A DNA stretch of 64,000 bases from an uncultured Bacillales bacterium (GTDB taxonomy: Bacteria > Bacillota_I > Bacilli_A > RF39 > UBA660). Both the position numbers and the translations under genes were made by a program. Below, piece by piece: positions 4,363 through 57,545 of this stretch. The notes under the pieces were generated by a model. That model saw only the letters and a list, made by a program, of their open reading frames with translations. It had not been told where the DNA came from and ran no database searches. The first letter of the stretch is position 1. Each line of letters opens with the position of its first letter. The DNA lies in assembly GCA_948433085.1 (NCBI GenBank), contig CAOJDP010000001.1, positions 15,642 to 79,641 of the forward strand. Direction: 5' to 3'.

Positions 4363-4623
4363 CTAATAATATTATACCTCAAATAACAGAAAAAAGAAGA
4401 TTCCTTTTTCTAAATGTAAAAATTGCATAAAAAATACTTTTGCCCAAATTTTTCTATAGCAGATAAATTATAAATTTTTATATGGTTATTTTATTAAAAA
4501 AAGAGTAAAGGATTAGTTTGCATTGAATTATTATGCAAATGTTTTTACCTATTTCCCTTACTTTTATAGTTTATGAATGATTTTCTTCTGTTTTCGTTGT
4601 TGCACTTTTTTTCAAATGAAATC

Positions 4624-5868
4624 CTATTTCTTCACATATCCTTTATCATGCTTTTCCTTTTCTTCAAATGTATTTAAGAATTGTTCTATTGCTTCTACAT
4701 CATTATCTTCTATCCATTTTGCAATATTATGATAAACGGTTTGATTTTGTTTTTCTTCAATATCTTCAATATATTTCTTAAATTTCTTTATATATTCTAA
4801 ATTGTTTGTAGCTTGCATTGCTTCCCATAATTTTTCAATTGGGGCGCCTTCTACATCACAAGCAAACTTATAAATATATTCTGCATTCTTTGTTTGGATT
4901 ACTCCTTCTGCTAGTTTTTCAATTGGGGCTCCTTTTACATCATGTGCAAACATATAAATATATTTTGCATTCCTTGTTTGGATTACTGTTTGTATTACTG
5001 CTTGTATTACTACCTCTGCTAGTTTTTCAATTGGAGCTCCTTCTACATCACAAGCAAACTTATAAATATATTCTGCATTCCTTGTTTGGATTACTCCTTC
5101 TGCTAGTTTTTCAATTGGAAATCCTTTTACATCAATAGCAAACATATAAATATATTTTGCATTCCTTGTTTGGATTACTGCCTCTGCTAATTTTTCAATC
5201 GGAGATCCTTTTACATGACATGCAAACTTGTAGATATATTTTGCATTTCCTGTTTGAATTATTGCTTCTGCTAATTTTTCAATTGGAGATCCTTCTACAT
5301 TACATGCAAACTTGTAGATATATTCTACATCCCCTATTTGTATTACTGCTTCTGCTAATTTTTCGATTGGAGATCCTTCTACATTACATGCAAACTTGTA
5401 GATATATTCTACATCCCCTATTTGGATTACTGCCTCAGCTAATTTTTCAATTGGGGCTCCTTTTACGTCACAAGCAAACTTGTAGATATATTCTACATCC
5501 CTTGTTTGGACTATTGCTTCTGCTAACTTTTCAATTGGGGCTCCTTCTACATTACATGCAAACTTGTAGATATAATATGCACCCTTTATTTGGATTACTG
5601 CCTCAGCCAATTTTTCAATTGGGGCTCCTTCTACATTTAAAGCAAACCAATAGATATATTCTGTTTTTCTTGTTTGGATTATTCCTTCTGCTAGTTTTCT
5701 GATTGGAGATCCTTTTACATGACATGCAAACTTGTAGATATATTTTGCATTTCCTGTTTCTACAATTTTTTGTGCTAATTCTTCTTTTTCTTTTTTGTTT
5801 AAACGATTTGCTAAAACAATTATTTTTTCAATATCATCTATAGACATGATAAATTCTAACTTATCCAT
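4624..5868 (-). CDS. Tandem-repeat protein with about 12 copies of a 28-aa unit (consensus roughly YIYKFACNVEGAPIEKLAEAVIQTGNAE). Family unknown; probably a helical solenoid.
   Basis: A 414-aa ORF has unique termini (N-terminal MDKLEFIMSIDDIEKI..., C-terminal ...KWIEDNDVEAIEQFL...). The interior is near-identical 28-aa repeats, with a 12-aa slippage-like insertion (VIQAVIQTVIQT). There is no signal peptide. Confidence 0.7.
   Translation of the reverse strand: MDKLEFIMSIDDIEKIIVLANRLNKKEKEELAQKIVETGNAKYIYKFACHVKGSPIRKLAEGIIQTRKTEYIYWFALNVEGAPIEKLAEAVIQIKGAYYIYKFACNVEGAPIEKLAEAIVQTRDVEYIYKFACDVKGAPIEKLAEAVIQIGDVEYIYKFACNVEGSPIEKLAEAVIQIGDVEYIYKFACNVEGSPIEKLAEAIIQTGNAKYIYKFACHVKGSPIEKLAEAVIQTRNAKYIYMFAIDVKGFPIEKLAEGVIQTRNAEYIYKFACDVEGAPIEKLAEVVIQAVIQTVIQTRNAKYIYMFAHDVKGAPIEKLAEGVIQTKNAEYIYKFACDVEGAPIEKLWEAMQATNNLEYIKKFKKYIEDIEEKQNQTVYHNIAKWIEDNDVEAIEQFLNTFEEKEKHDKGYVKK
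4776..5751 (-). repeat. About 12 copies of an in-frame 84-bp coding tandem repeat
   Basis: The DNA period is 84 bp; for example gctagtttttcaattgg... recurs at about 4910, 5021 and 5110. The plus-strand ORFs 4818..5138 and 5157..5702 are periodic shadows of this repeat. Confidence 0.85.
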
Positions 5869-5887
5869 ATTTCACTTCCTTAACTGT

Positions 5888-5918
5888 TTATTTTAATACT
5901 TATCAATTCTATAGTCAA
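5888..5918 (-). promoter_or_regulatory. Putative sigma-A promoter for the repeat-protein gene
   Basis: On the minus strand, TTGACT (5913-5918), a 17-nt spacer and TAAAAT (5890-5895) lie just upstream of AAGGAAG and the ATG at 5868. Confidence 0.35.
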
Positions 5919-6649
5919 CACTTACACGCTTTTTTTGAATAGGAGAACATGTAATTGATTCTAAAGTCTTTTATTGTGATGCACAAAGGAGTGATCAAAA
6001 ATCACAAATTGAATTATCACATGAATACATTAGAAGATACATTCCAAAAGGAATATCAATCAATGAAATACTAAATTGGACACTTTTTAGAATAAAATAA
6101 TTAAAAAAGCACAACTTTTGTTGCACTTAAACTTTCCAATTTCTAATTAAACTTTTATTTCTACCAAGTGTTTCACTTACTTTTTCATTTCACCTTTTTA
6201 AAATTATAGAAATTGCATAAAATTTGTTTTAATAATAAGGAAGTGTGATATATGATCTCTTTATTGATACATTTTGAAATATTAGATAATCTAGTAATAT
6301 AATTTAGAAAAACATAAATCAATCTATTATAATGACTATCTATGAAACTTCATAAAAATCTATAAATTTTGTTAATAGGATAGTTTTAATTCTACATGAA
6401 AAATTAAATGCTATTCTAACGAAACTTTTCCAAAAAAAGACAACTCCATAGATAACTGAGCAACTATCAGAAAGATTGTCTTTCGCACACTTAGATTCTT
6501 CTATAGTAACTTTAGGTAAAATAAAAACTTACCTTTATAGCACACTTGTATAAACTTTTGTACAATTGCTTATTTTTTAAAACAAAACACAATGAATTGC
6601 AAAAATTTTTTTAAGTATTTCTACAGATATTAAAATAGATTTCTTGGAT

Positions 6650-7867
6650 TTACATTGTTTTTCCAGAAGACAAAATAGTAACACAAATTTCTTCTACTTC
6701 ACCAAATTCATTTATCTTTTGAATCGAAATACCATCTTCAGGATTTTCTACATACTGCATTACATGATTCAAATACATATAATCTCCTTGCTCTTTCTTT
6801 CCCTCAACAGCCTGAGCAGTGTAATCCATAAATGACAAATTTTCTTGATCACACAAAATTTGTTCTACAGGAATCCCCTCTGATGCAGCAGTCAAAGCAA
6901 GTGTATTTTGCATATTGTCATAACCAAAATTATAACACTGAATTCCTGCTCCTACATGATAATCCATATATTGTAAAGATATTCTCAACAGTACACAGCC
7001 AATAGAGATATTAGTAATTGGATTTTGTAAATCATTTCGCGTAATACAGACAATATCTTGATTTTTAAAGTCATTTGGACAATCCGTTAATACAAAATGA
7101 TTATAACAATTATCCTTAAAATTATAAACAGTTAATGGGCTCTCACTCCATGCGTCAAATTCTATTTGCATCAAATTTGTTATTTTTCCTGCACTTTCCT
7201 GTGTTAACATGGCCATCACTAACTTTGGTGCAATCCCCCACTTACTTGCATATGTTTCAACAATACTATAATAACTATTATAAGCACTTTCTCCTGTCAA
7301 GGAATATCGATTATTTTCAAAATCTAAATACGTTACATTTTCATCCAATTTCTTAGAATTCTCATAATTTTCTATCGTTTGTAAAACTTTTTCTGTCCAA
7401 GTAGATTTATTATATTGATTTTCCAACATAATAGATTCTGTATCCTTTTCAATTGTTACAGGCTCAACTAATTTCGGATTTGACGATTCTTGAGAAGTAG
7501 TAGCTACTAAGGCCAACAACGCAAAAGCACCAATCGTAGCAGATCCCATCATTTTTAAATTTCGAACATACTTTTTTTGATGTTTCTTTTTTTGTTTTCC
7601 ACTCATTTCTTTTTGCATACAATCTAATATATTCCTTAAAAGAAATCTGTTCTCATTGTGAATAATAGAATAAATATCAGAAAAATAAAGAATGCCACAA
7701 TTGGTTTCCACCATTAAATCTTTCTTTTGCATTTGCACACGATGAATTATAGATGCATCTAATTTTTGTAATTGCCTTTTTGCATGCAATTCCTTGAATG
7801 TAACTACATGATTTTGCTGCTGTACTCTACAACAGAGTACATTTTTCTCTAAATAAAACTCATACAT
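6650..7867 (-). CDS. Lytic transglycosylase (SLT-domain) protein with an internal signal/TM anchor
   Basis: It contains the SLT catalytic motif KWGIAPKLVMAMLTQESAGK and a hydrophobic segment MMGSATIGAFALLALVATTS. The roughly 105 aa before the TM may be a true cytoplasmic extension or an over-extended start; internal starts at MSGKQ or MMGSA are possible. Confidence 0.7.
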   Translation of the reverse strand: MYEFYLEKNVLCCRVQQQNHVVTFKELHAKRQLQKLDASIIHRVQMQKKDLMVETNCGILYFSDIYSIIHNENRFLLRNILDCMQKEMSGKQKKKHQKKYVRNLKMMGSATIGAFALLALVATTSQESSNPKLVEPVTIEKDTESIMLENQYNKSTWTEKVLQTIENYENSKKLDENVTYLDFENNRYSLTGESAYNSYYSIVETYASKWGIAPKLVMAMLTQESAGKITNLMQIEFDAWSESPLTVYNFKDNCYNHFVLTDCPNDFKNQDIVCITRNDLQNPITNISIGCVLLRISLQYMDYHVGAGIQCYNFGYDNMQNTLALTAASEGIPVEQILCDQENLSFMDYTAQAVEGKKEQGDYMYLNHVMQYVENPEDGISIQKINEFGEVEEICVTILSSGKTM

Positions 7868-8075
7868 CTAGCTTCATCTCTTCTTTCAATCTTAAAAATA
7901 ATGCATCACTGATTGGTTTTAAAATGACTTGATCGTTTGCTAAAATATATTCATTAATTGTAATTGTATCCATCGTAGCAAATGCAACATAATTTTTTCC
8001 ATGATAATGAATCGAATCAATATATTCATATTGCTGTTCCCCAATTGTAATCTCAAAAGAATTCATATACTTCAC
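7860..8075 (-). CDS. Small DUF1292-family protein
   Basis: It is 71 aa with the pattern ...YEYIDSIHYHGKNYVAF...ILKPISD...RLKEEM typical of the Firmicute DUF1292/UPF0473 family. Confidence 0.5.
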   Translation of the reverse strand: MKYMNSFEITIGEQQYEYIDSIHYHGKNYVAFATMDTITINEYILANDQVILKPISDALFLRLKEEMKLDV

Positions 8076-14965: not shown

Positions 14966-15742
14966 ATGGCACGTCATAAAGTGGAAATTTGTGGCGTGAA
15001 TACTGCGAATATTAAAGTTTTAAATACGGAAGAAATGTATGATTTATTTTGTAAATTCAAAAATGGAGATGAATGTGCAAAAGAAGAATTAATCAATGGG
15101 AATTTAAAATTAGTACTATCCATTTTAAAAAAGTACAATAATCGTACAGACAATATGGATGATTTATTCCAAATTGGTGTAATTGGATTAATTAAAGCAA
15201 TTGATAATTTTGATTTAGAAAAAGAAGTCAAATTTTCTACCTATGCAGTTCCTATGATTCTAGGAGAAGTGAGACGTTATTTACGTGATTCTGGTAGTAT
15301 TCGAGTTGCACGCAGTATTAAAGACAATGCTTATCGTGCAATGAGAGCAAAAGAAGAATTGACAAATACCTATGGAAAAGAACCTACAATTGCAGAAATT
15401 GCAAAGAAAGTAGAGCTATCCGAATATGAAGTAAGTAATGCTTTAGAATCTATGCGCGATACGATTAGTATGTTTGAGCCTATTTATAACGATGGTGGTG
15501 ATACTATCTATTTAGCAGACCAACTCGAAGATAAAAAAGATACACATTATTCTCTAGATATGAAAATTTCTTTGAAAAATGCCATGGATCGATTAAAAGA
15601 AAAAGAACGCTATATCTTATATGAACGTTATATTTATGGAAAAACCCAATTAGAATTAGCAGAAGAAATAGGCATTTCACAAGCACAAATATCTAGATTA
15701 GAAAAAAGTGGTTTAGACCATATTAAAAAAATGATTTCATAA
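14966..15742 (+). CDS. sigG: Forespore-specific sporulation sigma factor SigG
   Basis: MARHKVEICGVNTANIKVL..., GNLKLVLSILKKYNNRTDNMDDLFQIGVIGLIKAIDNFD, FSTYAVPMILGEVRRYLRD and FEPIYNDGGDTIYLADQL are collinear with B. subtilis SigG, including the characteristic N-terminal KVEICGV. Confidence 0.9.
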   Translation: MARHKVEICGVNTANIKVLNTEEMYDLFCKFKNGDECAKEELINGNLKLVLSILKKYNNRTDNMDDLFQIGVIGLIKAIDNFDLEKEVKFSTYAVPMILGEVRRYLRDSGSIRVARSIKDNAYRAMRAKEELTNTYGKEPTIAEIAKKVELSEYEVSNALESMRDTISMFEPIYNDGGDTIYLADQLEDKKDTHYSLDMKISLKNAMDRLKEKERYILYERYIYGKTQLELAEEIGISQAQISRLEKSGLDHIKKMIS

Positions 15743-20168: not shown

Positions 20169-21878
20169 TTATGGCTCAACAGGTGTTGCATGATACTTTT
20201 TTACAAATTGACCTTTTTCATTTCGACTTTTATTCATACAAATGTGTCTTTTATGGATTTGCTGTTTGTTATGAATATAACGGATTGCTTCGGTATCTAA
20301 TAACTGTGTTGTAAGTGGATGATATAAATAATTATGTATAGTATCTGCAGTTACACCAAATAGATTTTCTAATCTTTTTGTATCATAATTCTTTTGTTGC
20401 AAATAATAAAGAATCGTTTGCGTAGAACATAACATTGCTTCTATTTGTGAATCAGAAACATCTAGTTCATGAAACGAAAATTTACCTTCAATCAATTGAA
20501 CAAAATTTTCTTCTATTTTAAACTTCTCATAACAATCAGAATTTCTATAATGTTTCCATAACCCTACCAGTGTTTTAAACTTAGATAATTTTTGTATATT
20601 TTTTTCTAATCTACTCTTTCGCAGTTTTTCTAATTCCAAAATTTTCTCTAATTCACAGCCAGCAAAATTAGATCTAAAATAATTTATAATTTCCCATTCT
20701 TCTACTTGAATCTGTGCTGCTAAATCTCGGAAAAGAATAAAATTTTCTTGATAGTATGTATATAAATTCATTCCTTGGTTTATACATAACTCTATTTTCT
20801 TTGCATCATAGACAATTTCAGAAATAGATTCAAAAAAATGACATCCAAACAATTGGTCTATTTCTTTCCCATCTAGCAAATTAATCCCATATTTTTTTTG
20901 AAATTCTAATAAAGTGACCCCAGACATATTTAAATAGGATGCATACAGCGTTAAATAATATGCTACTTTAGTTATTTTATCAGATGGAAAACAATGAAGA
21001 TTATTGATAGAAATAAGACTTCTGATTTTAAGTTTACTCATAATTTTAGGTCCTACTAATACCTTTAACCATTCACTGTTCAAAGTCTCTTTCATATGCT
21101 CCCATCCAATTTTATTTTTTTGATTCGCCTCTTCTTTAGTTAAACTATCATTAGATAATCGATCTTTTATCCATTTTAATCCTTTTATTTTTCGCATTGA
21201 ATTCTCTTTTTTCAAGGTGGCAATCATGGAATCGATTCGTTCTCTTTCCTCTTCTGTTAATGCAAATATACGGCCTAAATTCCGCCATTGACACATTCGC
21301 ATAAGTCCCCTATTTCTTAGCTTATTTAATTCAAATAATTTGTCAATTTCCTGTTTTGTGAGTTCCTCTGCCATTAATGTATCAAATGTAAAAATAATAT
21401 CATGTTCTTCTAAATGGTAATACGCAGCAAGCGCATCAAATGTAACATTATGTTCTAAAAAATAAAAATAAAATTTCATCTTGTCTCTTTGTCTCAATAA
21501 TGTAATATTATTGGCTTGCATTTTTTCAAAGCTATAATTGGATATCCCCTTTACTAAATAATCACGATTTAAAAGCTGGCAAATTTGGTCTACTGTATAA
21601 TTTTTTTCACGAGCAACATCTCCAAACGTTAGATTACCTGCTTTTAAAGTTCGATAAACATCTAATGCATCTTTATTGGCTTTTCTTTTTTGATTTTCCT
21701 CTTTAAACTTTTTCAATAAATTAACGTCTACATGATTCGCATAATAATAAAGTTGCTTAGAAAATTTACTTTCCTCTATTTCATAGTCACTTAGTAATTC
21801 TTCAATTGTAATATTACGCATCTTTGCTTTCTTATCAAAAAACGCTTGTTTTATTTTTTCCAATTCAGTCATATCCAT
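20169..21878 (-). CDS. Large hypothetical protein with multiple HTH-like segments
   Basis: 569 aa. The N-terminal MRNITIEELLSDYEI and several further helix-turn-helix-like stretches occur. No catalytic motifs recognised. Confidence 0.5.
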   Translation of the reverse strand: MDMTELEKIKQAFFDKKAKMRNITIEELLSDYEIEESKFSKQLYYYANHVDVNLLKKFKEENQKRKANKDALDVYRTLKAGNLTFGDVAREKNYTVDQICQLLNRDYLVKGISNYSFEKMQANNITLLRQRDKMKFYFYFLEHNVTFDALAAYYHLEEHDIIFTFDTLMAEELTKQEIDKLFELNKLRNRGLMRMCQWRNLGRIFALTEEERERIDSMIATLKKENSMRKIKGLKWIKDRLSNDSLTKEEANQKNKIGWEHMKETLNSEWLKVLVGPKIMSKLKIRSLISINNLHCFPSDKITKVAYYLTLYASYLNMSGVTLLEFQKKYGINLLDGKEIDQLFGCHFFESISEIVYDAKKIELCINQGMNLYTYYQENFILFRDLAAQIQVEEWEIINYFRSNFAGCELEKILELEKLRKSRLEKNIQKLSKFKTLVGLWKHYRNSDCYEKFKIEENFVQLIEGKFSFHELDVSDSQIEAMLCSTQTILYYLQQKNYDTKRLENLFGVTADTIHNYLYHPLTTQLLDTEAIRYIHNKQQIHKRHICMNKSRNEKGQFVKKYHATPVEP

Positions 21879-22057: not shown

Positions 22058-23350
22058 CTACTTTTTAGAAGGATTTCCACTCTGATTCATACTGACCTTT
22101 ACTTTTTGATGCTCTTTTGAATATAAAGTAGATGCATACTTTAAAATAGAGTAACTATACTGGAATGGGAACAAACTTCCTTGTGAGGTTGTAGTTAAAA
22201 AATGCATATATAAAATATTGGCCATTTCAATTTGTGATTCATCAATCCCTAGCGCAAGTGCTGTTTTTTCATAGGAAAAATTATGAATTGCAAGTTCCCC
22301 ACATAAATAATAAGGCATAATATTTCCAATCTCTATATGTGCTTTTAACCATTCAATTTTTTGTTCTACTTCCTTTTTATAATCGATATTATTTCCACAC
22401 AAATGACTGTACGAATGAGAATTTGAAACATGATTATTTTGGACAGCCATATTCATTTGTATTTTTTGTAAAACACAAGGTTGAAGCAAAGAAGCATACT
22501 GCTGAACAGATTGTAATATTTTTATAATCTCTTTTTTCCTTCGATTTTTTGTTTCTTGTATCCTATCTATATTTCTATCTCTATAGTAAGCTGAAATCAC
22601 ATTTAAATCTGAAATTGCCTTTGGCGTTGCACAATAAGTATTTTCTACTACAATCCTTCTCAAATAGGGATCTTTCATCCAGTATTGACCATATGGAGGC
22701 CTTTGGGTTTTACGAATATGATCTATTTGTTGTTTATGATGCATAATTAAATCTATAATCATTTGATTTTCAATTTGCAACTTTAAATTGGAAAAGAAAT
22801 ATTTATCTAAATTTGCATACTGAATAAATTCTTCTTGTGTAAATAAACTATCTAGATATAGTACAATTGTGCGATAAAGCATTTGATATGGAACATTCTC
22901 TTTTGTGCATAACTGTTGATAAACATTTTTTCCCTTATTTTTTCCCAATTTACTCACTAAATAATCCAAATCAAATAGATGGAGAAAAAATAACATTTGA
23001 TTTACTTTGTATAATTGACAATACTCTGCTAGTTCCTTCTTATTCAACAAAACAGAATTCACAATGTATCTCAAATCTTCACTTTCCATACAAATAAAAT
23101 TTTTTTCGTATGACTTTTTTAATTGTTCTATATTTTTTTCTCTTTGTCTTGCAATGGCTTCCCATGAATACATTCCAAAATGACTTATAATGGTTTGTTT
23201 TCCTTCTTCACTTAAAACATATGTAACTTCTTTTTCACCAATATTTAGTAATGCAGCAATTTCTGTTTCTAACTTTCCCTCTAAATAGTATTGAATCGTA
23301 GACCGCATTACAGATAAAGCACTTACAAATTCTTTTTCTTTATTCATCAT
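22058..23350 (-). CDS. Large hypothetical protein with sigma-70 region-4/LuxR-like HTH segments
   Basis: 430 aa. An N-terminal HTH ([17 protein letters not shown]) and a C-terminal HTH ([20 protein letters not shown]) are present. The start overlaps the lepA stop by 8-11 nt. Confidence 0.5.
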
Positions 23351-35860: not shown

Positions 35861-36826
35861 TTAAAATTTAAAGCGTTTTTGCAACTGTTGTATCTTTTCT
35901 TCTTCATCTGCACTCGCATATTTTTCTTTAATATGATTTAGAATTGCTATCCATTCTTTTCTCTTTTCTTTTAACTCGCTTGGATCATCATGATAAAATG
36001 TTCTATTTCCATTATTATAATTCACCCATTCTATTCCATTAAAAACAACATAAGGGCTAAATACATCATCTAGTTTGATTTCAACATCACAAGTATTGAT
36101 ATCATTTCCAACAATAAGGCCCTTTTTTGCTTTTAAATGACTCTTTGTTGCATCTACATAATCAGTATCAAGATAAATTTCTTGTGCATCTAATAAAGAT
36201 TTCACAATTTCTAGCTCTTTGGCTTTAATAACTATCTGTTCATGATTAGAAACAATTCGAGAATGAACAACCTTTACCTTCTTTGCACATATATCCATTC
36301 CAAAGTAATTGCGCTGATTATATGGGATATATAAATTTTGAAAATTTTCATTTCTAAAGATGAGTTCATTGATTGTCATATGTGAAACAGTTCTAAAAAA
36401 AGTTTGATTTTTATAGTTCGCAAGTCCATTTTTATATTGATTATTTTCAAATGTTATTTTATCTGCTTGTAATATAGTGATTGGTGAATATTTAAATTTA
36501 CAATTTCGAAATGTCATCTCACAACAATAAGAACCAATCTTAATAGGAGAACAAAAAACAATTCCATCAAAAACATAATGGACTTTTTTATCCAATTGAT
36601 AGTAGTAAATCAATTCCCTCTTTTGCTCATCCATTGTATTCATGCCACCAATATATAGTTCATAAAAAACAGGTTTGACATGTTTATCAAGTAACTTTTG
36701 TGTTACATAACATGTAATACATTTATCGTCTTCTACAATATCTCCAATATTGGCAATTTCGTGGAGCAAAAATTTAAACCGTTTAATTTGTTTGAATTCA
36801 TCCTTTAAGTTTTTCAAAAATAACAT
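35861..36826 (-). CDS. Hypothetical protein
   Basis: 321 aa with several Cys clusters (CITCYV, YCCEMTFRNC). No family recognised. Confidence 0.45.
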   Translation of the reverse strand: MLFLKNLKDEFKQIKRFKFLLHEIANIGDIVEDDKCITCYVTQKLLDKHVKPVFYELYIGGMNTMDEQKRELIYYYQLDKKVHYVFDGIVFCSPIKIGSYCCEMTFRNCKFKYSPITILQADKITFENNQYKNGLANYKNQTFFRTVSHMTINELIFRNENFQNLYIPYNQRNYFGMDICAKKVKVVHSRIVSNHEQIVIKAKELEIVKSLLDAQEIYLDTDYVDATKSHLKAKKGLIVGNDINTCDVEIKLDDVFSPYVVFNGIEWVNYNNGNRTFYHDDPSELKEKRKEWIAILNHIKEKYASADEEEKIQQLQKRFKF

Positions 36827-49937: not shown

Positions 49938-51338
49938 TTAACGTGTTTTCTGATTTTCAAGATTTTGATTTTTCATTGATTCTAAAAATGCAAACTTTTC
50001 TTCTAAATAGGGATCTTTTATCTCCATTAAATAACTTTTTACCATCTCAATTAACATTTGAAACAACTGTTCAAAGGACAAATTTTGGTGATACAGTTGT
50101 TGCATATGGAATGACAAATTCATACCAAATTGATACAACAAATACTGATTATAATGATACATATCACCTTCTAATAATGCTTCAGGCGTTTCTTTTTGTT
50201 TCAACCTATTGATTTCTTTTTCTAAAAATTGAAGTCTTTCTAACAATTCTAATGTATGATTTTCTTCATTCCATTGCCTTTTTTCTTTTTGTTTCAAAAC
50301 ATCTGTATTTAACTCACAATCCTTTATATTTACACGCAATTGTTGATATTCACAAGTACGTGTTTTTATTTCAACTTCATTTTTTTCTTTTGCCAATTCT
50401 ACTAACAGTTGTAATCCCTCTGTTGTAAACTTTTGCATACACAAAGCAATAGACGCTTCCATATCTACATCCTTATAACACTTATTATTTTTCGCTAGCA
50501 AAAGGGTAAGGATAGCAAATATTTCTGTAATAAAATTATGATATTTTTGAGGAATATGAATCAACTCTAAATTGGAAAATTTCCACCTATCACGTGTTTG
50601 TTTTGGTAATATAAACATAAGTAACATATAAAGTTGAAAATAGATATGATAGGTTTTCACAGATGGAACTTCATTTTCCTGCGTTGCAAGCAATTTGTTA
50701 TATTTTTTATTTTCTAATAATCTTTCATGGTAAATAGCATCCCCCTCACTTAACATACGCATCATATCAAATGAAAATGGATACTCACTAGAATAATAAT
50801 AACCATCGAAAAATTGACTTGCGTGTCGCAATTCATGATGAAAATTTTCAGGAAAATTACTTGAAGCCATGATTTCAATTGCTCTAGTGGTTTTTGTAGA
50901 TTTGCACACTCCAATTGTCAATAAAGCATAAGTACCATTTTCATTATCTAATACATATTGTTCCTTCTCTTTTCTAAATCTCTGAAAAACAGGATATGCA
51001 TGTGGAATTTTTTCCATATGTTTGTAAAAATAATTAGTTGAATCATTTAATATATCATCTAATCCATAAATTTTTAATGAATCAAGTTTTTCCAAAATAT
51101 GAAAATTTTCTTGAATATATTTTTCTACAGGTGTGTGCTCTAAAATATTCTTATTGGAATCATAGTGCTCTACCATTGATAACAACCAAAGTTTTAAAAA
51201 CATTTGATAAAATTCATTCAATTGCTTTTCTTGCATAATCTTCTCAAGTTGTTCATAATATTGAAAATATATTTTTGCTTTCCTACTCTGTTTTTGTTCA
51301 TATTTTTCTAACAATTCTTTATAATAATCCATTCGCAA
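49938..51338 (-). CDS. Hypothetical protein with an HExxH motif; putative zincin-like metallopeptidase
   Basis: 466 aa. HHELRHASQFF is the only recognisable motif, and a coiled-coil-rich C-terminal half follows. Confidence 0.45.
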   Translation of the reverse strand: MRMDYYKELLEKYEQKQSRKAKIYFQYYEQLEKIMQEKQLNEFYQMFLKLWLLSMVEHYDSNKNILEHTPVEKYIQENFHILEKLDSLKIYGLDDILNDSTNYFYKHMEKIPHAYPVFQRFRKEKEQYVLDNENGTYALLTIGVCKSTKTTRAIEIMASSNFPENFHHELRHASQFFDGYYYSSEYPFSFDMMRMLSEGDAIYHERLLENKKYNKLLATQENEVPSVKTYHIYFQLYMLLMFILPKQTRDRWKFSNLELIHIPQKYHNFITEIFAILTLLLAKNNKCYKDVDMEASIALCMQKFTTEGLQLLVELAKEKNEVEIKTRTCEYQQLRVNIKDCELNTDVLKQKEKRQWNEENHTLELLERLQFLEKEINRLKQKETPEALLEGDMYHYNQYLLYQFGMNLSFHMQQLYHQNLSFEQLFQMLIEMVKSYLMEIKDPYLEEKFAFLESMKNQNLENQKTR

Positions 51339-56084: not shown

Positions 56085-57545
56085 GAGTGGTTTTAGTTAC
56101 CTCCTTGAACATTTGGTTCTTATTTTAGACTAAAGCCTCTTCTTTACAAATTGGATATTAATGAGTTGTATAAGGACTTGCTTGTTAGCTTTTGCCTTTC
56201 ATTTGCGAGGTTATATCTTTGTAAAGGTACTGAGGGCACTGCCTCTATCTTAAATATCAAGAATTGGAGTTTTTATTATGAATTATTTTTTAGGTATTGA
56301 TATTGCTAAAACAAATCACGTTGCTTCACTTATCTACAACACTGGAGATGTTGTTATAAGGGCAATTAAATTTACAAATAGTAATGAAGGTTATGCAAAA
56401 CTTTTAACCACCATCCAAGATAAACTTGGTGATTTAAGCAATATTGAGGTTGCTATGGAAGCGACAGGTCACTATTGGTTAAGCTTATATTCCGCTTTAA
56501 CTGATAATGGTTTTAACGTATCTGTTTATAATCCTTACCAAGTTAAATCCTATCGCGGTGCTTATAATAATAGAAAACAAAAAAATGATATTATTGATTC
56601 TATTATTATCGCTGATTACTTAAGAGTTTTTGGTTTTAAAGAATCTAAATTGCCTGAGGAAAACTTATTATCTTTAAAACAATTAACTCGTTTTAGATCT
56701 AACATTGTAGATAATGTTTCTTCTTTAAAAGTCCAAGTAATTGGATTACTAGATAAAGTTTTTCCAGAATATAAGAAACTTTTTTGTGATACCTTTGGTA
56801 CTACTTCGAAACAACTATTACTGAATTGTCCAACTCCTGATGACATCATCAAGATTTCTACTACGAAACTAGCTAATTTATTATCTAAACATAGTAAGGG
56901 TAAATTTAACAAAGATACTGCTCTTCATATCAAGGAAGTTGCTAAGTCATCTTTTGGTATCAAATTTACTAATGATGCTTGTTCTTTTGAAATCAAACAA
57001 CTTATCAATCAAATTATCTTTTTAGAAAATCAAATTGATGCAGTAAGTAAAGAAATCAAAGAACTTTATAATAAATTAGATAACCACCTTTTATCAGTTC
57101 CTGGTGTTGTAGTTAATCTTGCTCCTATCATTTTAGCAGAAATTGGAGACATCAATAACTTTGATAAACCTAGTAAACTGATTGCTTTTGCTGGTACTGA
57201 TCCTTCTGAAAATCAATCTGGTAATAAATTATCTTCTAATGATAAAACTTCTAAAAGAGGTTTCCCCTATCTTCGTCATGCCATTTATATAGCTAGTTTA
57301 GTTGCAATATCAAATGAGCCTGAGCTTAGAACTTATTATGATAAAAAGATATCTGAAGGTAAGCACCATTTTGTTGCCTTAGCAGGCATTAGTCGTAAAT
57401 TATTAACAATCATCTATTACATTCTTAAAGAGAATAGAGATTATATTAGATACGACAATATCAAAGACAACAAGAACTAAATTTTTCAAAAATTTGAATA
57501 CTTTGGTTGTTTTTGTCATGCAGTAATTTAAGCAAGTTTTCATTT
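56085..57545 (+). mobile_element. IS110-family insertion sequence; boundaries approximate
   Basis: It comprises the transposase gene plus a GC-richer 5' leader (about 56085-56277) embedded in AT-rich intergenic DNA. No terminal inverted repeats are visible, as is typical for IS110. Orientation is opposite to the flanking genes. Confidence 0.5.
56278..57480 (+). CDS. IS110/IS116/IS902-family (DEDD) transposase
   Basis: N-terminal FLGIDIAKTNHVA, and the C-terminal DEDD_Tnp_IS110 pattern (SVPGVVVNLAPIILAEIGDINNF...AGTDPSENQSG). A GGAG RBS lies upstream. Confidence 0.85.
   Translation: MNYFLGIDIAKTNHVASLIYNTGDVVIRAIKFTNSNEGYAKLLTTIQDKLGDLSNIEVAMEATGHYWLSLYSALTDNGFNVSVYNPYQVKSYRGAYNNRKQKNDIIDSIIIADYLRVFGFKESKLPEENLLSLKQLTRFRSNIVDNVSSLKVQVIGLLDKVFPEYKKLFCDTFGTTSKQLLLNCPTPDDIIKISTTKLANLLSKHSKGKFNKDTALHIKEVAKSSFGIKFTNDACSFEIKQLINQIIFLENQIDAVSKEIKELYNKLDNHLLSVPGVVVNLAPIILAEIGDINNFDKPSKLIAFAGTDPSENQSGNKLSSNDKTSKRGFPYLRHAIYIASLVAISNEPELRTYYDKKISEGKHHFVALAGISRKLLTIIYYILKENRDYIRYDNIKDNKN

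Follow-up and report, generated by a model that had tools for sequence, protein, structure and literature searches.

A predicted alpha-solenoid protein of eleven 28-residue units from a repeat family absent from the domain databases, encoded by an uncultured Bacillales bacterium

The 64,000-nucleotide stretch of DNA analysed here, in the following called the window, comprises positions 15,642 to 79,641 of contig CAOJDP010000001.1 from the assembly of an uncultured Bacillales bacterium (GCA_948433085.1). On its minus strand it contains an open reading frame (ORF) at 4624-5868 that consists mostly of tandem repeats and that is a real gene. The encoded protein of 414 residues starts with a short cap, continues with an array of 28-residue units, and ends with a tail outside the repeat. 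The parts of the gene are as follows.

4624..5868, minus strand: coding sequence of the 414-residue repeat protein, taken from the ORF list; stop codon TAG at 4624-4626
5743..5868, minus strand: N-terminal cap, residues 1-42, with short helices and the half-unit ELAQKIVETGNAK
4795..5742, minus strand: array of 11 tandem units of 28 residues (84 bp), residues 43-358, delimited by Tandem Repeats Finder, the spacing of the anchor motif, and a unit model
4975..5010, minus strand: VIQA-VIQT-VIQT micro-duplication, three tandem 12-bp copies, causing an 8-residue insertion in unit 9
4627..4794, minus strand: C-terminal non-repeat tail, residues 359-414, with two long helices and the motif WIEDNDVEAIEQFLN

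Every unit is composed of a first helix (helix A, xAxYIYxFAx), a loop (xVxGAP), a second helix (helix B, IEKLAEAVIQT), and a turn. Tandem Repeats Finder reports the 84-bp period across 5002-5759 (9.0 copies, 83% matches, score 919), and overlapping rows of the same program carry the array on to 4790. The YIY anchor recurs every 28 residues, resulting in 11 full units between residues 43 and 358. A hidden Markov model (HMM) of the family unit matches the protein 11 times with E-values from 1e-15 to 1e-18, which is far beyond chance, and has no match outside the repeat gene in a six-frame translation of the window. An earlier note on this DNA, made by reading the letters, had counted about 12 units. 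The tandem array of 84 bp and 28 residues stands, but the count is 11 full units plus cap fragments; a degenerate start of a 12th unit (YIKKF) is found at the beginning of the C-terminal tail. Unit 9 is lengthened from 28 to 36 residues by the VIQA-VIQT-VIQT insertion. The underlying DNA is recorded by Tandem Repeats Finder at 4975-5011 with a period of 12, 3.1 copies and 92% matches, in agreement with the slippage-like insertion that had been noticed there before, and none of 220 relatives contains a micro-duplication of this kind. The plus strand of the gene contains two antisense ORFs at 4818-5138 (106 residues) and 5157-5702 (181 residues), which are leucine-rich and periodic. Both arise from the repeat as artefacts and do not merit annotation as genes.

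With 58 homologues as input, AlphaFold2 models the whole protein with a predicted local distance difference test score (pLDDT) of 92 and a predicted template modelling score (pTM) of 0.75. The earlier note had described the interior as a solenoid-like array and had proposed to check this by predicting the structure of a few units; a fragment of five units resulted in a pLDDT of 98 and a pTM of 0.90, and both models bear the description out. Each 28-residue unit is predicted to contain two helices of 10-11 residues, connected by the five-residue loop (xVxGAP) and followed by a turn of two residues. In the model, the cap folds into three helices (residues 3-8, 13-20, and 25-38) and the tail into two (residues 357-387 and 391-407). 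The insertion in unit 9 is modelled as a longer helix B (residues 280-298), where the pLDDT falls to 63-79. No beta-strand is predicted anywhere in the 414 residues. The fold is thus confidently modelled as an alpha-alpha solenoid.

The protein is mildly acidic (isoelectric point 5.4, net charge -9) and contains 27 tyrosines and eight cysteines. It lacks a hydrophobic N-terminus, a signal sequence, and a transmembrane segment; the Kyte-Doolittle average over 19 residues peaks at 1.25, and a hydrophobic segment (average above 1.8) is present in only two of the 220 relatives. Because it is mildly acidic and lacks a hydrophobic segment, it is expected to be a soluble cytoplasmic protein. As had been proposed from the missing signal peptide, it is therefore probably intracellular.

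The repeat defines a large family, which we call the YIYxFA family after its anchor motif. A word-indexed search yielded 102 homologues at E<=1e-3, the best full-length matches being 41-54% identical, and nearly all of these homologues have neither a name nor a Pfam domain. An exhaustive search against 1.84 billion cluster representatives (clusters at 50% identity) extended the family to 1171 representatives at E<=1e-3, of which 592 are found at E<=1e-10 and 116 at E<=1e-30, so that the search for the unit in other sequences, another check proposed beforehand, was fruitful. The family consensus of the unit is [ND]A[EK]YIYxFA[RK]DVKGA[PN]IxKL[AE]DAIIxT[GK]. I5, Y6, F8, A9, and L20 are conserved to at least 90% across the family, and positions 7, 10, 11, 18, 26, and 28 are the most variable. 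Of about 310 pairs of neighbouring units, 262 keep the spacing of 28 residues; where insertions occasionally occur, they are mostly located in the loop. The relatives contain between one and 12 units together with diverse N- and C-terminal extensions. Like the protein of the window, they are standalone and predicted to be cytoplasmic. The 414-residue protein is itself a member, with tandem 28-residue units that match the profile, predicted solubility, and no signal or transmembrane segment. Two giant multi-domain relatives, P0103 (1676 residues) and P0133 (1115 residues), carry several separate 28-residue repeat blocks, so the repeat extends beyond small standalone proteins. The motif variant of P0103 is QMRLFA, and P0133 appears to have a PcfJ-like region, as suggested by an HCV motif.

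The sequences of the family were obtained from gut metagenomes and metagenome-assembled genomes, and its members belong mainly to uncultured gut Bacilli and spore-forming Firmicutes. Spore-formers among the hosts include that of the window itself, which encodes SpoIIP, and that of the metagenome contig L016 with its SSPI and SpoVID-like genes. A scan of species-representative genomes provided one distant relative, from an "uncultured Bacilli bacterium" of the rabbit gut, and a metagenome scan likewise provided one. A phage or plasmid origin was rejected: tblastn against 50,697 phage records gave no match and against plasmids only one weak match. In the BFVD there is one probable homologue in an uncultured phage (A0A6J5RY29, 26% identity, template modelling (TM) score 0.48).

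None of the databases of known domains accounts for the repeat. In Pfam, the 414-residue protein does not match HEAT, HEAT_2, HEAT_PBS, TPR, Sel1, Ank, Arm, LRR, or MORN even at E<=10, and 80 long relatives do not match any known repeat family at E<=1e-4. Pfam, NCBIfam, PHROGs, and PADLOC together gave only spurious partial matches without any passing stretch. Searching the sequences of the PDB with the single sequence resulted in one chance match (hemolin, E 0.15), and searching with a two-unit family profile gave no match at E<=10, though alphaRep chains are in the set. The impression that the unit fits none of TPR, ANK, HEAT/PBS, LRR, and MORN was therefore right as far as the Pfam, NCBIfam, and PDB sequence searches reach, and none of the known repeat families matched clearly. 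Hence, the family, large as it is, is missing from Pfam, NCBIfam, and the PDB and is described in no database.

At the level of structure, neighbours do exist. The whole model retrieves only generic alpha-solenoids with Foldseek (designed repeat proteins, Sel1, and armadillo; TM scores of at most 0.27). For the five-unit fragment the nearest structures are alphaReps with TM scores of 0.48-0.50 and identities of 21-24% (6gwd_G, TM 0.50, 23% identity; 3ltm_B, 0.49; 7q1e_C, 0.48). AlphaReps were designed from thermostable HEAT-like repeats and are, like HEAT-like proteins in general, cytoplasmic protein-binding scaffolds. With the PBS-lyase HEAT-like and alphaRep proteins (3ltm, 6gwd, 7q1e) the YIYxFA units share the two antiparallel helices of about ten residues and the regular alpha-solenoid, and it could be imagined that the family is simply a divergent PBS-lyase HEAT-like member of the alphaRep class that sequence models have missed. 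The best fragment-level matches and the common two-helix architecture speak for this. However, HEAT-like units have 30-31 residues instead of 28, and the signature here, YIYxFA..VKGAP..KL..AII.T, is a different one. The HEAT models of Pfam do not recognise the protein or the 80 relatives at the thresholds given above, the family profile does not find the alphaRep chains, and the Foldseek E-values are only 0.02-0.2. In addition, when the five-unit profile was compared by hhalign with an alphaRep sequence entered by hand, the probability was 0.2%, and HEAT-like membership was rejected on this comparison. We consider such an overlooked kinship unlikely. On the models, the fold class is the known one of HEAT-like two-helix solenoids and the sequence family is not.

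The other solenoids differ more obviously. Sel1-like repeats (6ok3, 4bwr, and LpnE, 6deh) are bacterial alpha/alpha solenoids as well, have a comparable helix-turn pattern of the type A..Y..(F/L)A....G, and reach Foldseek probabilities of up to 1.0 on the whole model, but across the whole model and the five-unit fragment their TM scores are only 0.16-0.35. Their units comprise 36-44 residues, the Pfam Sel1 model matches neither the protein nor the 80 relatives, and Sel1-like proteins are often secreted, whereas the YIYxFA family lacks a signal peptide. Designed helical repeat and armadillo proteins (DHR49, 5cwj; OR497, 4rv1; the YIIIM series) resemble the array in being idealised, nearly uniform, and predicted with high confidence, and superpose on the five-unit model with TM scores of 0.42-0.43. 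They are artificial, however, whereas the repeat family here is natural, and an armadillo unit contains three helices in about 42 residues compared to two in 28 here; no Arm model matches. Leucine-rich repeats of the ribonuclease-inhibitor type are similar in unit length (28-29 residues) and in forming cytoplasmic solenoids, but their unit is built from a beta-strand and a helix, while no strand is predicted here and no LRR model matches. TPR units have 34 residues, and neither the protein nor the 80 relatives have a TPR match. Ankyrin units have 33 residues forming a helix-turn-helix plus a beta-hairpin loop, in contrast to the 28 residues and five-residue loop here, and an Ank match is missing, too.

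How similar the units are to each other bears on the history of the array. The repeats had been called near-identical, which is overstated. In pairwise comparisons of the 11 units the DNA identity ranges from 67% to 92% with a mean of 81%, and the mean protein identity is 72%. Each unit differs from all the others, and exact repeats are no longer than 59 bp. The core positions are invariant across the units, and replacements concentrate at positions of helix A and the turn; position 7 is a lysine and position 10 a cysteine in eight of the 11 units each. According to the Nei-Gojobori method, the synonymous divergence (dS) among the units is about 0.43 and the non-synonymous divergence (dN) about 0.18 (dN/dS about 0.41). 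A dS of this size means that the units were not expanded or homogenised recently in absolute terms, and this part of the earlier suggestion does not hold. Among 147 family members with at least five units each, however, the array is the most homogeneous of all, with a unit identity within the protein of 71% against a family median of 40%. In addition, its units have at most 56% mean identity to the units of any other protein. Both observations support a lineage-specific expansion or partial homogenisation, which is the part of the suggestion that survives.

Changes in unit number can be followed in the relatives. One of these, P0104/P0213, has 169 residues and only two units. Its cap is the same as that of the 414-residue protein at 41 of 42 residues (residues 1-42), and its C-terminal tail is near-identical; the tail is partly conserved also in P0200 and P0002. 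The two-unit copy is located at 434-1031 of the metagenome contig L021 (ENA ERZ15143728 NODE_18253), beside DUF2229/HGD-D genes. L021 is homologous to the window only at 5941-4552 (88-93% identity), and the flanks are unrelated. The homology starts just 12 bp upstream of the -35 hexamer and stops just past the stop codon of L021, and its promoter deviates from that of the window at a single base, which belongs to the -10 hexamer. Because the flanks are unrelated, L021 represents a second locus: a paralogue, or else the copy of a sister species. For the same reason, with only 4552-5941 being shared, P0104/P0213 was rejected as an allele of the same locus or as a collapsed assembly. The same metagenome contains, at similar coverage, another contig that is practically indistinguishable from the window. 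It is possible that promoter and gene were duplicated as a cassette within one and the same genome.

The comparison with L021 also concerns the end of the gene, where one more feature has to be listed.

4556..4623, minus strand: sequence just past the stop that encodes IGFHLKKSATTKTEENHS followed by a stop in the -1 frame, recognised by alignment with L021/P0213, whose frame is open there

The run of adenines by the TAG stop differs by one nucleotide, being GAAGAAATAGG in the window and GAAAAAAATAGG in L021. The frame of L021 continues for 23 codons beyond the stop of the window, 16 of 18 tail residues are still encoded in the -1 frame of the window, and the homology ends right after the downstream TAA (region 4556-4634 of the window). 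The sequence at 4556..4623 is therefore a probable former C-terminal extension that was cut off by the difference in the A-run. Either the early TAG genuinely shortens the protein at its C-terminus, or it stems from a sequencing error in the homopolymer.

A change of whole units between otherwise identical alleles is seen only in another family member. In two assemblies from Hadza gut, the sequences at L005 6332-7825 and L008 3288-4613 are 100% identical over 1326 bp and differ by an exact in-register indel of 168 bp, corresponding to two units. The identity at the junction is only 2 bp, which together with the otherwise complete identity argues against a k-mer collapse; an assembly collapse behind the difference is thus unlikely. 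Judging from this pair, whole-unit indels do arise in the YIYxFA family. L005 encodes the copy with 497 residues, and a second paralogue of 437 residues follows directly downstream. For the 414-residue protein itself we did not find an exact record. A search with the C-terminal 112 residues led only to the P0104 cluster and one weak match, and the short-read contigs of near-identical strains, which were reached via the neighbouring genes for SufS, a response regulator, and a lysozyme-like protein, all end before the repeat gene.

The signals around the gene had been interpreted as those of a standalone transcription unit with its own promoter-like elements, and the following features agree with this.

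5890..5918, minus strand: promoter-like site of the sigma-70 type, TTGACT-17-TAAAAT, from a consensus scan (10/12 matches)
5873..5881, minus strand: ribosome-binding site AAGGAAGTG, 4 nt before the ATG, read from the sequence and conserved in L021
4497..4560, minus strand: terminator-like hairpin followed by a run of seven U, 64-127 nt past the stop; fold of -9.6 kcal/mol, z-score -1.8

The predicted promoter is near-consensus and of the sigma-A type, and the putative ribosome-binding site is strong. The hairpin is weak evidence, being AT-rich and missed by the consensus terminator scan. Promoter, ribosome-binding site, and terminator-like hairpin together fit a monocistronic unit, so that the gene looks like a standalone transcription unit and is probably well expressed. 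The upstream spacer, which had been taken as about 780 bp of non-coding DNA, indeed measures 781 bp (5869-6649). Its ORFs are all of 45 residues or less, and it has no Rfam match at E<=1. Inside the spacer, at 6107-6128 on the minus strand, a further terminator-like hairpin with a U-run (z-score -2.5) is found about 520 nt downstream of the gene for the lysozyme-like protein and 240 nt upstream of the repeat gene. Neither an ORF nor an Rfam family accounts for it, and it might be the sign of a long 3' untranslated region or of a small transcript missing from the annotation.

What could such a protein do? The reading that we prefer, and to which we would give an even chance, is that of a cytoplasmic protein-binding scaffold or adaptor, an eleven-unit solenoid of an undescribed family whose array changes by whole units. 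Between the cap and the two-helix tail, the eleven two-helix units would stack into one continuous rod or superhelix, soluble in the cytoplasm, with the conserved hydrophobic and Tyr/Phe positions building its core, and the gene would be transcribed alone from its sigma-A-type promoter. The binding face would be provided by positions 3, 7, 10, and 11 of helix A and by the turn between the units; the surface of helix B (E-K--E---Q) is uniform along the rod. A scaffold role is suggested because the structural neighbours are all protein- or peptide-binding solenoids, because the acidity fits the binding of protein better than that of nucleic acid, and because, with an invariant core, the replacements are concentrated on the exposed face of helix A and in the inter-unit turn. 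The array would evolve by in-register gain and loss of whole units and by occasional small slippage such as the duplication of 3x12 bp. This turnover of units would have yielded the unusually long and homogeneous array in the lineage of the window.

Several points weigh against the scaffold reading. The solenoid is a predicted and not a solved structure, the Foldseek E-values of the five-unit fragment are weak (0.02-0.2), and the assignment of the binding face is based on helical-wheel reasoning. We did not find any paper containing the motif strings, and a literature search on alpha-solenoids and 28-residue repeats did not reveal anything specific. The domains that co-occur in the 80 long relatives are PcfJ (in two), SH3_6 (in two), and a weak OHA match (in three); such fusions are rare and uninformative on function. 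Finally, a conserved gene neighbourhood or operon partner was not found across six loci.

Besides the kinship with HEAT-like proteins discussed above, three other explanations have to be considered. The protein might belong to a biological conflict and be subject to an arms race, for example as an immunity protein, as a decoy against a toxin or phage protein, or as the sensor of a defence system. Tandem paralogues occur in some genomes (the 497- and 437-residue proteins side by side in L005), near-identical strains are separated by whole-unit indels, the promoter-plus-gene cassette is present at a second locus, the rare fusions include PcfJ, a mobile-element domain, and the probable homologue A0A6J5RY29 of the BFVD belongs to an uncultured phage. 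These observations speak for a conflict. However, PADLOC offers only a spurious partial match to Specificity_I (Type I specificity subunit; E 3e-4) without a passing domain, the 50,697 phage records are devoid of matches, and the plasmids provide the single weak one. At none of the loci examined does a toxin, effector, or defence gene adjoin; the neighbours are housekeeping genes. The dN/dS of 0.41 among the units, too, does not indicate diversifying selection overall, and a conflict function thus seems quite improbable to us.

Alternatively, the solenoid could read a linear polymer, be it nucleic acid, peptide, or glycopolymer, in a modular fashion, with one unit recognising one ligand element as in TALE, PUF, PPR, or designed armadillo proteins. 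The unit is very regular, with a rigid conserved scaffold and few variable exposed positions (7, 10, 11, 18, and 26), the number of units varies from one to 12 among the relatives, and peptide-binding designed armadillo proteins are among the structural neighbours. But an isoelectric point of 5.4 and a net charge of -9 speak against the binding of nucleic acids, the gene is not accompanied by any RNA or DNA feature, and within the 414-residue protein the variable positions are nearly uniform, so that there is no sign of a diversified code. We regard a polymer reader as very unlikely. An even more far-reaching version would be a previously unrecognised class of modular binding repeats, in which each unit reads one element of an extended periodic ligand, reach and valency are tuned by the number of units, and promoter-gene cassettes are copied to new loci, the two-unit and eleven-unit copies with their common promoter being the example. 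This is a long shot, but if such a class did exist, a natural idealised two-helix scaffold could be a ready-made platform for protein engineering.

A structural protein of the spore or envelope, such as a coat component rich in Tyr and Cys that the mother cell would produce without a signal peptide, is an outside chance at best: the host and several relatives are spore-formers (SpoIIP in the window, SSPI and SpoVID-like genes in L016, a SpoIVFB-like M50B gene by P0008), the protein contains the 27 tyrosines and eight cysteines, and repeat-number variation is known from coat proteins such as CotG, but the promoter is sigma-A-like instead of sigma-E- or sigma-K-like and conserved as such in the second copy, the confidently predicted globular solenoid is unlike the low-complexity repeats of coat proteins, and linkage to coat genes is missing.

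If the scaffold reading is true, the 414-residue protein exemplifies, in a clean and extreme form, a large alpha-solenoid family that comprises over 1000 clusters at 50% identity. With a name and a model for the 28-residue unit, thousands of "hypothetical proteins" from gut metagenomes would be annotated, and the regular two-helix unit, being shorter than HEAT-like units, may interest protein designers. The in-register unit changes and the duplicated promoter-gene cassette represent a tractable case for the expansion of repeat arrays in bacteria. On a long-standing open question the family currently has no bearing.

Concerning the genomic setting, the repeat gene of the window lies among housekeeping genes. 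It is flanked by a ThiF-family gene and a two-component system on one side, and by genes for the lysozyme-like/SLT protein, SufS, SufD, and SufC on the other. The neighbours of the relatives differ from locus to locus and include trpS (L004), whiA, which is preceded by the tandem paralogues (L005), hemN and mscS (L016), the genes for a SpoIVFB-like (M50B) protease and rplU with the relative located in between (L017), and ndk and degV (L019). At most, the gene loosely recurs in the chromosomal region holA-gpr-spoIIP-lepA-hemN, a region that is also present in the window.

The window holds further genes and ORFs. The gene next to the spacer, at 6650-7867 on the minus strand, encodes a 405-residue protein with weak lysozyme-like/SLT matches and overlaps an ORF of 71 residues at 7860-8075 on the same strand. 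This pair is kept as a unit downstream of sufS in the metagenome contigs L001, L013, and L014. Four other minus-strand ORFs, at 20169-21878 (569 residues), 22058-23350 (430 residues), 49938-51338 (466 residues), and 35861-36826 (321 residues), have no Pfam match at E<=1e-5, and two of them sit between hemN and lepA. The window is almost entirely encoded on the minus strand, and among the few plus-strand genes is an IS110-family transposase at 56278-57480 (DEDD_Tnp_IS110 and Transposase_20).

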